Shown piece by piece: positions 8,050 to 16,062 of a stretch of 64,000 nucleotides of DNA. How positions within the stretch are numbered: position 1 is the first letter of the stretch; each line of letters starts with the position of its first letter. The stretch spans positions 36,952,001-37,016,000 of the forward strand of contig OX597814.1 of assembly GCA_951406725.2 (NCBI GenBank). The letters run 5' to 3'. The notes below the pieces were generated by a model, which worked only from the letters and a program-made list of their open reading frames with translations, made no database searches and had not been told where the DNA came from. Position numbers and translations under genes: made by a program. The stretch is from Octopus vulgaris. Lineage: Eukaryota.

Positions 8050-10250
8050 ATTTTGAAATATTTCACAAACGTTCTTGATTGTACTGATCTCGTTTGATCA
8101 ACCCAGCACGAAAGCTTCGAAATCTTGATTTTCCCATGTTAAATCGTAGAGGTTTGTCTTTATCACATTGCTATATCTCTTTTGAAATTTATGCTGTGGT
8201 AACTTTAGTATTAGAACGCCATGATGTAATTGCTGAATAATCCTGGTGCTACAAATTCTAATTAAATGGCCTATCCAGCGTATTTCATTCAATATAATGA
8301 TTTCCTTTTTCAATGTTGGGCATGTTATTGTTTGCAAGAGCAAATGTGTCAGCGTATAATTTATACTAGTTCATCCTTAGTATACGCCTTAATCAGTTTA
8401 GGTGAAATCTTTCAAATGATACGGAATGTTGACGATGGGTGGTCCCTGTTTCTGTAGTATACAAAACACAGCATAAATTACTACATAAAGTGATTCGTGC
8501 TAAGAGTGATTCCTCTAATTTTCTAAACACGTTTTTCAAGTCTGCCAAAGGCAGGGCTTGCCTTTGCAATCTTTGGATAAATTTCAACAAATAATGATCT
8601 ACCAGATGATACAGAACTCTTGAAATCCAACCATGTTCCATTGACCCTGATATTAGTCATGTCATTAAGCGTCTCTGGATGCAAGTGTGAGAACAACCCT
8701 TTGGTCTTATTGAGTGTAAATGGAGTCCGAACGTATTGAGAGCTCTAGAAAAATTCTCCATTAGCAGTTGCATATCTTGCTATTAAAGGGTCACAAAATC
8801 GACATCGTCTGCATATAGTAATCCACGCAAAATCTCTTCCAAATCTGTATATAATCAGATTAAATAGGTTACTAGAGTCTCGGAAACTTGAACAGACATC
8901 AATGGTAAATCCTTGAAATATATAATAATAACATTAATGAAATTCAGGGAGGCATGTGTGGGAACAAATATGTCTTCTTCCTTGACACTGTTATCCATTG
9001 AGATAGAGTCTGATAGGACACTACTAGCATTTACACGAGCCACGTGCATTCATGTTTAGAAGGAGTTTGTGAATTATATCGGCAACCTCCGGCGCGCATC
9101 CTATCTTTTCTAAGCGTTTGTGAGCTAAACAAAAACTTGAATAAGTGGTAGTGAGTGCTCAGTTTACTTTTGTTGTATTTGGCGTGTTGAAAAGCTCGTG
9201 TATCTTGTGTGTCGGGCTTTTCTGATCAATCTTGTGTAATCCATTTTAAAATGCGATCCAGTAGAATCCTGCTCTTCCAAAAACCTTTACAACTGCTTCC
9301 AGTAGTTGTTCTACAGTAATCGCTAGAAATGTTTTTGTTCTCTTTGCTTTTGTACATAGATTATGACTGCACAAACCCAGTCCCGCCTGATGCCACAGCC
9401 CCGCTATTCATGTAAAAATTGACTATGAATTTCAACTCGACAACATCACCACCATACCATAGTAGTTCTACACAGGGATATTATCAAAGCCTGGAGCTCT
9501 ACCAGTGCTTACTTCCTTTTATTTCACATTTTATTTCATATAAGTTGGCTACCAGCAACTTTCCATTTATAGGATCTGTCAATGAGAAACCATTTACGAT
9601 TTCATTTATAATCGATAGATATGAAACGGTTCAGTGAAGTGTTCAGTCCATCTTCAATATATTTCACCAGTACCTTTATACAATACATTTCCACCCTAGA
9701 TTTTACAGGCATAATACTTGTGGTTTGAGGGTTAAAAATTTTCTTCAGTAAGCTGCGTAATTGATTTGTATTTTGATCACGTGCATTTTGCGTTTCTGTT
9801 ATGATAGTCGATAACCGTCTTTCTTTTCTCGAAGATCGCGTTGATTAGGGGCTTTGTAGAATAGGCTTTCTTTACAATGTGCAAAATGTCATATTTACAT
9901 GTAATAAGTCATGTTCAGAAATATCCTGCACCTCGTGTAACACTTACTGAGCATATGTTTGCAAAATCTCGCTTGTGTATGACTGCATTGTACAAAATTA
10001 GTCCAGGCTTTTGATCCTGGCTGAATCTATGCCAGTTATGAACATCCCTTTCTTTGACAAACGGATTAAACTATGGCTAGATAAAATTCTGTACAAAATA
10101 GGAGACGTAAACCATTACTGTTTGTTTTGCGTGGCCCATGATTGCCAAAAGGCTCCCAGACCATATAGGATTTGAGATATCCTAAAATATGTTTATCGGC
10201 TATTGTAGCTGAAAAGTTGCTTTTTTCAAATCTTGGTAAAGCCCATTTTC
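8050..10250 (-). mobile_element. RTE-clade LINE remnant (RT and C-terminus clear, endonuclease traces weak)
   Basis: LLYADDVDF (YADD at 8804-8815), IRWIGHLIRI..IQQLHHG..PQHKFQKRYSNVIKTNL, weak WHR and SEH APE-like traces; many stops. Confidence 0.85.
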
Positions 10251-10556: not shown

Positions 10557-10594
10557 ATATATAAACACATGCATTCATAGATATAACCACGTGT

Positions 10595-10781
10595 GTACCG
10601 TTGGCGATTTTTTTCCTCCGTCTTCCCTTCTTTGGAGCTTTCCTTTTCCTAAGTTTCTGACGAAGATCTCCACTCGAAACCTTAAACCCTCCTTCTTTCC
10701 TGAGCGTTCAACAACACTATACTTGTTCCGCGTCCTCGCGTTGTTGTGTTTTCTCTTTGTGTTTTCATGTTTGGATTAACT
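10595..10781 (+). mobile_element. Short PLE terminal-repeat-derived element with degenerate minimal hammerhead
   Basis: gttt-CTGACGA-agatctccactc-GAAAC-ctt-aaac at 10653-10687; element ends in (TA)n. Confidence 0.65.
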
Positions 10782-11284
10782 ATATATATATAAAACTATA
10801 TAAAAACAAACATTAATTTATCCCCAACTATGAACTCTAGGTGGTATATAACAATGGATAAAACTAGTGTTTTCTTTTTAAGATCTGTCATTTGAATATG
10901 ATTTTGCAATTTCATACGTAACTATTTCCGCATATTAATTAGTGTTAGTGAAACAAGTGCAAAAGTTACGTACTTGATGATGTTTCAGTAGATCACATCT
11001 CTTGTTATGGTATAATATGGTTATATGTGTTTTTATATCAATGCTTGTTCTCCCCCAACGCTTAATTACCTGTGTTCCTCTGTTTACATCTTTGTAACAT
11101 AGTGGTCCGGCAAAGACACCGATGGAATAAGTACACCAATATTGACTTTCTTGTACAAAAATATAGGGACACAATGTGTCGTGTAGCCAGCTGGATACAA
11201 TGTTTCCTGGGGTTAAATAACAGTAACATTCGTCCCAACCGTGACTGACACATTATGTTGGCAAATGACCTTTATATATATATA

Positions 11285-11555: not shown

Positions 11556-11560
<5 letters not shown>
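11285..11560 (-). mobile_element. Short element between (TA)n tracts with degenerate HHR
   Basis: Minus strand tgtcg-CTGATGAG-gtcgcagatgtatgac-aaaa (stem II gtc/gac; G of GAAA lost) at ~11325-11363. Confidence 0.45.
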
Positions 11561-11603
<43 letters not shown>

Positions 11604-12433
11604 GCATACATACCCACACACATATATATATGTACACATACATACATACATACATGTATATATATATATATAACTTAAACCTTATGTCTTTTTAGGTACC
11701 ACCAGATAAGAGTGCAAATTGGAACGTTGCCCAAAGAATTGGAAGAGATGTTTAAGAACAAAAAAATAAACCAACAGAACAGTTATCTATTAGATTATAG
11801 GAGGGAATGGAATAAGTATATTTGGAATAGCCACAACAAGAAATATATTAAGATAGAAAAATGTATTACCATGTAAATGATGAGAATACGAATGTACAAT
11901 AGAGAGGATGTATAAACATTCCTACGATTGTTTCATGATTATGTAATTTATCAGAATGAAACCGAAATAATAATATATTGAAGCTGCGTAACCATTCTTC
12001 AGACATATAAAAGGAAGCAAATAGTTCTTAAAAGTTTATCCTTGTTTATAAGAATGTTTTATTCCATAGTAGTATAGAGAGGAGTCATAGTGATTCTGTA
12101 CAAATTTCCATATAGTAATCCGACAAGATTATGAGAGATTTTCGTAGTAGTAATCGTGTATACGTTTTTCATAGTAATTGTAAATATTAACAGTAGAGAC
12201 ACAAAGTATGAGAATATGTGTTATTATTTATATTAGTATGATTCATTCTTATTACGCACATGGGGCTACAAAGAGCGACAGACGAACATATAAGTAGGAA
12301 AAATAAAGAAAACGAATGAAAAATGGCTATGAATAATGAAAAATGGAATTAAGTCTACCCGACCCCACTATCTGAGTGACATCATTTAGACATTTTAAAC
12401 CGTTTATAAAACAATTCATTACATTATCATCAG

Positions 12434-12785
12434 TTAGTCAGTGCTGAAATATAGGCAAAGATAGCCCACCGTTGGTGGCAATTTACCTGCGTCGATTTCC
12501 CTATTCAGGTCCAAGGTCTCTTTTCTGTATTTTACTATTAATCTACTCCTTTCTTCCTTACTCAGCAGAGCATATCCAGAATGCTCGGGCAAACCCTCAA
12601 ACCCCGCTACTTGCACCGACACAGGTGTGTTTGTATTTGTAATTTCCTAGATTTCTTAGCATTTTGTTCGCATGGTTCTAAACCACCGCGTGATACGTTT
12701 TAGCGGGTGGTGATTGGGGAATTTCGGGTACCTGAATGTTTGTGCATGTGTCTGTGTCTGGAGAGCCAAGGTGAGGATTGGTGAC
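12434..12785 (-). pseudogene. Left-arm ORF remnant of unknown family
   Basis: VTNPHLGSPDTDTCTNIQVPEIPQSP..(stop/frameshift)..PVSVQVAGFEGLPEHSGYALLSKEERSRLIVKYRKETLDLNREIDAGKLPPTVGYLCLYFSTD*; homologous to the right-arm ORF. Confidence 0.7.
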
Positions 12786-12835
12786 TGGTGGTGGATGGTG
12801 GGATAGCGAGGGACCGGGTGGATGTCGGGTGTCGG

Positions 12836-13186
12836 GTTACCAACCCTCACTCTGCCCCACAAAACACAGATACGATTGCAGACATTCAGGTGCCCGAAAT
12901 CCCCCAATCTCCAGCCCAAAAGGAAAAAAAAATGTCACGTGTGATAGACAACGTTTCTAATAAAAGGTTGAAAAGGGAGAACAATATGAATTTTCCAGTG
13001 TTGGTGGACGTGTCGGAGTATGAGGGATTGTCCGATCACTCCGGATGTGCCCTAGTGAGTGTTGAAGAACGGATTAGTCTGATGGAAATGTATGGGACGG
13101 AGATTTAAGATTTGAGGATAGAGGTCGACATGAGTATGATGCTACCAGCGGCGAACTTTCGTAACCTTTATTTTGGGAACGATTAA
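12836..13186 (+). pseudogene. Right-arm ORF remnant of unknown family (one internal TAA at 13106-13108)
   Basis: VTNPHSAPQNTDTIADIQVPEIPQSP..PVLVDVSEYEGLSDHSGCALVSVEERISLMEMYGTEI*DLRIEVDMSMMLPAANFRNLYFGND*; 28/63 identical to the left arm over the C-terminal part, with the same terminal stop position. Confidence 0.7.
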
Positions 13187-13542
13187 CTGTTGATATTGCT
13201 TTGTTATGAATTCAATGTTTTGTAAATGTGTTAAATGGTTGAAATGAAGTCGTTAGGATCGTGGGGTGCGAATCACCTTCATTCCATCCATCCGTTTTTT
13301 ATAACCAACTTTTACATAAGAATATATGAGAATATAATATTCTTATACTTTGTGTCTCTACTGTTAACATTTACAATTACTATGAAAAATTATACTGGAT
13401 TACTACTGTGGAAATCTCTCAAACCTTGTCGGATTATTATATGGAGATGTATACAGAATTCCTACGAATCCTATCTATACCACTATGGATTAACTAATTC
13501 TTATAAACACGGATAAACTTTTAAGAACAGTTTCTTCCTTCT

Positions 13543-13635
13543 ATATCTCTGAAGAATGGTTATGCAGCTTGAATATGATTATCATTTCGATTTCATTCAG
13601 GTAACTTAAATAATCATGAAACGATCGTAACGATT
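13543..13635 (+). ncRNA. Type I hammerhead-like motif with long stem II (mirror copy on minus strand at ~11915-12008)
   Basis: atct-CTGAAGA-atggttat..ataatcat-GAAA-CGATCG-TA: palindromic stem III ACGATCGT and GUA triplet; stem I imperfect. Confidence 0.6.
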
Positions 13636-16062
13636 TTTATACATCCTCGTATTCTCTATTTTACATTCCTATTCTCATCATTTACGTGGTAATACAATTC
13701 TTAATATATTTCTTGTGACTATTCAAAATATACTTATCCCATTCTCTTTTACATTCTAATATATAATTATATATATGAATATTTATATCATATACATATA
13801 TATGTATAAATATGTATATATTATATATATGTATTTATTTACACATGTACACACACAAACACACATATATGTGTGTGTGTTTGAACATCTATCCTTCTTT
13901 CTGTATCTATAATATACACACATCCATATATGTAACCTACCGACACAGAAACATGTACATACATACACATCGATGGGATGGTTTCTATAGTTTAAGGACC
14001 ATTCTATATTACAGTTCCATCTTTGAAACTCTGACGTATATATGGATGACTGTATGTGTGTGCGCGCATGTGTTGGCGTGGATGTTTTTGCCTGTGTACA
14101 TCTATGTGTGCAATGTGTCTGTGCATATGTGCCAGAGTGAGCATATGTATATAATATTAAGACTGGCTTTCTTTGCTATCCTCAGTAGATGAATCCACTC
14201 CTTCAATATCTCATCACATGTACCATCGCATCACCTTTTCTGATATAAAATCCAAGACGCATCTCAGCTCACGAATTTAAACCACGTTTACTTCGGTCCG
14301 GTTGATATATCGTCATTCTGGACCGAGTATATCGTCGTTTTTTCCGATAGAATTCTAATTGTAGTTTTATAGTTTCTTACACTCAGCAAATATTCATAAC
14401 GGAATAGACTCATAAATGAAAATGGTTTCATAATGGAATTGTTAAATATATAATTATATGAATTGTAAGTATCATGTGCATTAGAATTTATTGAAACTTT
14501 TCGCAATAGCAAATATTGACTACCTTTAGTTATTATATTTCTTATTTTATGACGTCGCTTTATTACTATTTCTAGCAAACCAATATGATTAACATTTTGT
14601 ATGTTCACCCAGAATATAAATATATATTACTAAAGACGTAAGTGAGATTCATATTTAAATAAATGATATGATAAACGAAAGTAAAGTTAAAATTTATGAA
14701 TTATGATAAACTTATGCCTTAGTTTATAACAAGCGAACCTGATACAGACAAGGCATTCGTTCATCATAACACTGGTATAGCTTCTTATTTACTTTAAGTC
14801 TATATGAGTCACAAATTATCGCGTTACTTCTATTGGGTCGTCAGAGAGATCAATCATGAAACCATTTTTTCTATTTCTTGGGATTAAATTAGTTTATGTA
14901 AGCTCTTTATCCTGCATGTCAAGGACTTTGTAGCTAGTAAAGCAAATGTAGGTCGTTGATATTCTAATGTATAAATGAGGGTTGCATTTCCGGTGTTTCG
15001 TACTTTTGCTTCATAAAGCGTGATGTATCTATGTTCAGATTTCTGTGAATCTGCCCATTTCACATTAATAAAATAGGCAAAAAGAAATCAGCTGTATTTT
15101 AATTGTTTTCATTATCATTATTATAAATTAATTATTTTACTCGACTAACAGTTAAAACGTATTTAGATTATGTCATTTCTAAATTAAATACCGCACAGAA
15201 AATTAATTTCTTTGTCGTTTCTAATACTTATAAACACGCAATCTTTTATTGCTGTACATCTGTTAATACGCTATGCTATATTCATGATGTGTTTTCCCTA
15301 ACGTGCTTCCTTCTACGAAAATAAATTTAAGCTTATATTCTATATTGAATACCGTATTGAGAGAGACGGTGCACAAGTACATATATATTTGTCGTGATAT
15401 ACCGAAATAATTTGCAAGTTTATTTAGTAAGAATCAAAGAGAAAGGAAACAACAAACCAGACGCTAAGAGAATTTGTACGCATATACATATTGCAGACAG
15501 TGATCCGTAAATATATGATTATTTATACAGTGTGCTATCAATATATATCAGAGCATTTCTCAAGGCAAAACATAAGTTCAAAGTGCTAGCCTCTCTGAAT
15601 ATTTATGCCATAAACTACCGGTAAATACATTCTTTGAAAAAATTACAAATACTTACCGTTCTTATATCCTAGGTATATTTGCAAAGTGTACAGATTAGAA
15701 TTCAGTTTCTATTTACTATAACATTCATATACGTATTTCCACATGTCGTTATTTCTATTATAGTCAATTTTTGAAAATCTATTACATATCAAATGCAATA
15801 ACGTCAAATTGAAATTGCCTATGCATAAAAACGTGAACGATAAATTGAACGCACTCATTGTTGACGTGAGAATTGAAATATTAAAGAATGTTACTCTATA
15901 CGCTGTTTAGTATGTTTTCTGAGTGAAACATAAATGATACTCGATCAACTGCTGGTAGTCAGGTATGAACATGAGAAGAAACACACCAAAGCACCTACGC
16001 ACGCAAACACACAAATACATACAAACACGCATAGGAATCAAACCTTGAAATGTATACATACT

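Follow-up and report, generated by a model that had tools for sequence, protein, structure and literature searches.

The DNA analysed here, a stretch of 64,000 nucleotides of the Octopus vulgaris genome (hereafter, the window), contains a 2-kb palindrome in which two related reading frames point away from each other. The locus raises the question of whether these frames are the genes of a bidirectional element or something else, and of how the two arms came together. We find that it is a relic of nested jumping genes, not a two-gene element. Its parts are, with a probability of about 0.9, decayed head-to-head repeat ends with hammerhead motifs and two broken ends of ORF1-only LINE derivatives.

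Architecture of the palindrome

The two arms, 11783-12785 and 12836-13766, are reverse complements of each other around about position 12810, as a sequence-only reading of the window had described. The impression that the outer arms are more alike than the coding part is borne out by the identities (83% for the outer and 64% for the inner arms). The span first given to the palindrome, 11780..13770, is that of a real structure but ends too early on the left, where the arm continues outward by about 113 bases, to about 11670; this tail (11670-11782) is without a counterpart on the right arm. A single contig crossing the junction (11685-13386) is present in each of four out of four DNA runs, which carry three species labels, and these contigs differ from the window at 13-38 positions; the far right end of the palindrome is covered in the runs by short pieces only. 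The palindrome is not an assembly artefact: the structure is real and old. Its parts are as follows.

11557..11669, no strand: TA/CA microsatellite bordering the long end, a likely target of the insertion (from the sequence; family ends fall in TA repeats at other loci)
11670..12241, minus strand: left arm of the probable Penelope-like host, with target region, hammerhead and tail of ~113 bases
11919..12005, minus strand: putative type I hammerhead motif, left copy (core start 12002, GAAA at 11934)
12242..12838, minus strand: 3' part of a predicted ORF1-only Tx1-clade element, subfamily A (proline-rich linker, C-terminal ORF1 domain, 3' UTR)
12834..12846, no strand: head-to-head junction, with a 5-bp stem and a 3-base loop
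12836..13325, plus strand: 3' part of a predicted ORF1-only Tx1-clade element, subfamily B (linker, C-terminal domain, 3' UTR deleted near its end)
13326..13766, plus strand: right arm of the probable Penelope-like host, reaching the short end
13546..13633, plus strand: putative type I hammerhead motif, right copy (core start 13549, GAAA at 13618)
13767..13830, no strand: TA-rich flank at the short end (from the sequence)

At the junction the arms overlap by 2-3 bases and are offset by 51 bases in element coordinates; neither host sequence nor a target duplication is present between them at 12834..12846. Differences between the window and three of the other runs are concentrated near the centre of the palindrome: at least 11 of about 38 lie in 12784-12931, that is, in 148 of 1702 bases (p 3e-4, computed after the fact), possibly through hairpin-linked mutation. 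Two candidate features were set aside. An RNA rod, suggested by an excess of G-U pairs, was given up once the repeat family had been found; mismatches number 65 G-T against 41 A-C overall, with no excess in the outer arms. A coding-looking inward frame at 11679-11876 has stops common to the copies and matches no family, and is treated as non-coding.

Inner arms

Genome searches with the inner arms gave 84 DNA matches and 14 protein matches. Some copies of the family are longer and extend upstream by another 1.1 kb, where they contain a frame encoding a CCHC knuckle (zf-CCHC, E 2e-6). Their ORF1 core, which as a query yielded 150 scored matches among 11742 candidates, including the ORF1 of full LINEs, is 45-51% identical (E 1e-31 to 1e-34) to the ORF1 of LINEs that encode APE, RT and zf-RVT in ORF2. 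This helper LINE probably belongs to the Tx1 clade, judged from its domain order (APE, RT, zf-RVT) and its likeness to known members. Both the ORF1 core and zf-CCHC are seen on longer family copies, the window containing the 3' part only. Direct comparison of the window's C-terminal domain with the C terminus of autonomous ORF1 gives a weak match (HMM best E 0.03; profile-profile probability 31%, E 5e-4), and the domain is tied to ORF1 because of its position in the longer copies. No ORF2 lies between ORF1 and the 3' end: most of the 27 ends listed, two of which are those of the window, have a short tail soon after the stop and then other sequence, and the full-length copies that were read (L047, L049 and L052) are devoid of ORF2.

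The two inner arms fall in different clades of 19 copies, and a forced sister grouping is rejected (AU p 1e-6). The proposal that two subfamilies of one element are joined head-to-head thus holds for the inner arms, which, judged from these comparisons, represent two distinct subfamilies of an ORF1-only Tx1/L1-clade retroelement, each truncated at its 5' end. Target duplications of about 16 bases flank L047 and L049; the window, lacking the 5' sides, shows none. Of 26 other copies, only 2 begin within the same 60 bases as the window arms, a mapping that is unreliable for six copies, whose references are without the C-terminal domain.

By eye, other ORF1-only copies end in mariner-like or other repeats. 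Five of them (L055, L150, L151, L153 and L155) appear to share a 3' end spot just before an apparent mariner transposase start, like Tx1-Mar. Head-to-tail stacks of ORF1-only elements occur in L049 (5260-5600, with the units split by a target duplication), L043 (4566-6850) and L107 (3350-6900), and in L106 (4373-5735) two ORF1 cores lie tail to tail about 760 bases apart.

Coding constraint in the inner-arm frames

Homologous TAA stops close the two frames (12434-12436, minus; 13184-13186, plus). Their last 63 codons align free of gaps, with 28 identical residues, 16 of them written with other codons, exactly as first counted. A neutral simulation gives a pN/pS of 0.83; between the arms it is 0.55 (bootstrap 0.35-0.90; p 0.027), and dN/dS over the 63-codon alignment is 0.39, not the value near 1 that had been named as speaking against selection. 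A constraint signature is therefore there, as claimed, but it is common to most pairs of family copies: the ratios run from 0.30 to 0.87 over all 36 pairs of 9 copies and are highest within subfamily A. The synonymous excess recurs wherever copies of different subfamilies are compared, and within subfamily A the pairs approach the neutral value. The value of 0.39 is thus the ordinary between-subfamily signal and, since most family-copy pairs show it, has no locus-specific meaning. Changes private to each arm (3 synonymous and 7 non-synonymous) look neutral, and we infer that the constraint dates from the period when the subfamilies were active.

The frames are not the two intact ORFs that had been reported. 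On the right, an in-frame TAA (13106-13108) lies within the 63 codons, and insertions of 2 and 1 bases interrupt the frame in three of the four runs. On the left, the 70-codon frame (open at 12434-12646) is without a Met, and stops at 12649 and 12658 together with a frame change sever its upstream part. Searches with the window peptides gave no match in Pfam, solved structures or the protein atlas. An early stop is seen elsewhere in the family: in four of the nine copies (the window at 12647-12649, L016, L033 and L039) it falls at nearly the same codon, in an A-rich run just before the C-terminal domain, and two of these four have a Met after it, as a slippage hotspot or a separate small frame might.

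It can hardly be credited, then, that the palindrome is a bidirectional element or gene pair encoding two working paralogous proteins. The inter-arm dN/dS of 0.39 is what speaks for such a pair; it is opposed by the internal stop on the right and the missing Met on the left, the insertions in the right frame, the 3 to 7 balance of private changes in each arm and the spread of ratios across the family, and none of the 84 genome matches has the same centre at another locus. What remains in each arm is a broken ORF1 3' end. The pattern that the sequence-only reading had offered as the opposite outcome, the C terminus of a known element with a junction unique to the locus, is in substance what we find: the peptide is the end of a transposon ORF1, and no second copy of the junction was found. 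As a gene or a new protein family the locus is of no value, its peptides being transposon ORF1 ends.

Outer arms

The earlier identification of the element was incomplete in that it overlooked the outer arms, which are a different element with a hammerhead motif. They form a separate low-copy family of 19 loci. The type I hammerhead core is found in both window arms and at 6 other family loci. In an alignment of the window family with a sister family, 91% of the cells are paired, compared with 30-54% in slid controls; in helix II, 7 of 9 pairs are changed on both sides between the two families, which is largely one split between two families. In the sister family, helix II is rewritten and the core, helix I and helix III are retained; its hammerhead pattern gives 173 matches against 0 for the reversed pattern. 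Helix III is minimal (two pairs). An Rfam search of the window returned microsatellite noise only and listed no hammerhead. According to the available text of PMC4209133, Penelope-like elements have a minimal, palindromic helix III and hammerhead motif pairs on opposite strands.

Eight of the 19 family loci are two-armed, that is, head-to-head, and mostly lie in TA repeats; the palindromic layout of the locus follows from this habit of the outer-arm element. Six of the eight have one long and one short end, a layout that the available parts of PMC8557442 and PMC3846280 give as Penelope-like. Here and at the loci inspected, the ends are embedded in TA repeats. The host stretch that precedes the target is similar to the end of a decayed ORF at another locus, L250 (tblastx E 3e-12, five-locus search). 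L250 has two same-strand hammerheads 7.4 kb apart, the second of which is preceded, at about 240 bases, by a full Tx1 LINE. Of the ORF with RT and GIY-YIG endonuclease that marks Penelope elements, only decayed pieces are seen. The candidate RT and endonuclease motifs in L250 presumably are those of Penelope; Pfam gave no match on these RT and endonuclease pieces, and the window itself contains no Penelope ORF. Taken by sequence and layout, the outer arms are likely the 3' end of a low-copy Penelope-like element. A foldback DNA transposon with captured LINE pieces, its long terminal inverted repeats being the outer arms, would also have long inverted arms and could recur, as at the similar locus L047; yet the two ends here are unequal and share no terminal sequence, the inner cut points of the arms vary and the arms contain hammerheads, which makes that reading very improbable.

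Several related structures were seen. L250 1104-8516 (G000:C8:42997001-43007000) appears to be a decayed Penelope-like element between its two hammerheads, with the Tx1 LINE inside its 3' part, and a further endonuclease-like piece lies at about 9540-9780. In the window, a second hammerhead-like motif lies at 10575-10800, in another repeat ending in TA, and the family of that repeat forms a 500-base palindrome with a perfect centre in L043 (1771-2275). Short palindromes also occur in an older host subfamily (L147 4769-5042; L148 5049-5430), and their near-perfect foldback centres coincide in position between the two loci.

LINE derivatives inside the host

ORF1-only elements sit in the same host region at L047, L048 and L049. 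Outside the window, four of seven target-bearing arms are occupied (by ORF1-only elements in L047, L048 and L049 and by an insert in L253) and three are empty (L060, L061 and L146). In the window arms the LINE derivative lies about 240 and 224 bases ahead of the hammerhead, much as a full Tx1 LINE does in a sister family that is likely Penelope-like, and seemingly at one shared spot, about 50 bases before that of L047, L048, L049 and L253. The L047 element is an in-place insertion into an arm, with a 16-base duplication. At L048, an ORF1-only end is joined to a host end, with no upstream host within 9 kb, and this locus looks like a moved composite. Within a literature search outside which most subscription papers and Repbase lay, we found no report of Tx1 or ORF1-only elements targeting Penelope ends, nor of palindrome arms from different templates. 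A recent octopus repeat annotation covers L1-Tx1 and Penelope families; the available main text (PMC13282606) is without mention of ORF1, hammerhead or nested elements.

Assembly of the palindrome

How Penelope-like elements make inverted ends is still described as unresolved in the available text of PMC8557442. We rate it slightly short of an even bet that a single integration made the palindrome by copying two distinct composite RNAs. More tentatively, we propose how: a Penelope enzyme may have copied two RNAs, one per strand, into one break, each RNA being that of a half-LINE parasite reading into a Penelope end. The enzyme of a full Tx1 LINE would have placed ORF1-only elements in two donor Penelope copies, and transcripts would have run from these elements into the Penelope end, presumed to bear the signal for the Penelope reverse transcriptase. 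The Penelope enzyme would have cut both strands of the TA repeat; one RNA would have been primed at the outer start, giving the long end, and another at the inner start, giving the short end. Both copies would have halted in the C-rich linker and been joined through the overlap of 2-3 bases. The locus is likely inert now.

The resemblance of the window junction to short overlaps at other family junctions counts for two templates. The available text of PMC11167929 describes a Penelope protein that, in vitro, cuts both strands, extends both and has two neighbouring RNA start sites; it is predicted to dimerise. This route leaves the 51-base offset to chance or to a stall, and the tail of about 113 bases, against the usual 30-40, counts against it. 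Among 10 matches there is neither a donor locus nor a second copy of either junction; the one match that spans the junction, L047 at 73%, is joined differently. The outer arms bear on the matter through shared states, which were counted as the outer-arm tree is mostly unresolved. Across 433-435 columns the window's outer arms have no strictly private state in common, unlike the arms of the two other long two-armed loci, L047 (4 in 341) and L062 (4 in 337); unrelated pairs (n=44) share 0-2. Private changes are uneven between the window arms (41 against 24; p 0.046, a weak value and one of several tests) and number 11 against 13 in L047 and L062 each. These two results, and the composite look of L048, count for two templates. 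The window arms do share 2-3 nearly private states, a count that rose from 0 with more rows, and the same insertion spot; both facts fit one common template and count against two.

Those last two facts are also what a later central deletion would account for. A Penelope-like palindrome would have formed first, ORF1-only elements of two subfamilies would have inserted in place, one per arm, and a deletion, for example by replication past a hairpin that could not pair in the variable linker, would have removed the 5' half and the target duplication of each insert together with the middle of the host. The in-place insertion with a target duplication in L047 and the occupation of four of the seven other target-bearing arms show the pieces that this history needs, and it would explain the in-register ends without chance. 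It has to add a deletion that left no trace, and the absence of strictly private shared states and the uneven private changes set the window apart from L047 and L062. We regard it as possible, at odds clearly below even. The shared insertion spot would equally follow if one composite RNA had been copied into both arms and one inner arm had then been swapped, by template switch or later gene conversion, with the gap just before the end of the right 3' UTR as a possible switch point. However, L047 is the nearest copy for most of the right inner arm and the left arm is the nearest for no part of it, and by private states the outer arms are not sisters, so we consider such a swap unlikely.

What distinguishes our two-RNA proposal from a foldback model is that it predicts arms from different templates, and the foldback model does not. 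LINE pieces nested in the arms are natural tags of template origin. A single old locus cannot settle the route; it does point to a test that could be applied genome-wide, palindromes of this kind being plentiful. If two RNAs were indeed copied into one break, the locus would be genomic evidence that Penelope palindromes can be built from two templates, and LINE derivatives that target Penelope ends would be able to hitch rides on a second, unrelated retrotransposon machine.

Relation to known systems

Each part has a precedent: inverted Penelope ends, hammerheads, half-LINEs, target-specific Tx1 elements and Penelope transport of foreign sequence. The comparisons below are with the available portions of the papers cited. 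The arms resemble the inverted, 5'-truncated copies of Penelope-like elements (PMC8557442, PMC3846280, PMC4209133 and PMC11167929) in their head-to-head arrangement, one-end tail and TA-repeat targets, in the type I hammerhead with a two-pair helix III and a palindromic loop, and in the short overlap or small palindrome at the junction. They differ in the tail of about 113 bases, where 30-40 is usual, in a helix II loop of about 45 bases and in bearing different LINE pieces.

The inner element is like HAL1 (half-L1; PMC5753468) in having a single ORF1, a short 3' UTR, no ORF2 and several subfamilies that diverged under coding constraint, whereas the octopus element derives from a knuckle-bearing Tx1-type ORF1 and prefers sites in other repeats. 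In this preference it recalls Tx1 in Tx1D and Tx1-Mar in Mariner-N4_AMi (PMC4494074), with repeated insertion at a set spot in another mobile element, tandem stacking and duplications of about 16 bases; here, the target is instead the stretch before the hammerhead of a Penelope-like element. Finally, Penelope-driven movement in Adineta vaga (PMC3846280) indicates that Penelope ends suffice to move unrelated sequence in trans. The cargo there is a host gene between repeats, whereas in the octopus palindrome it would be LINE pieces, different in each arm.
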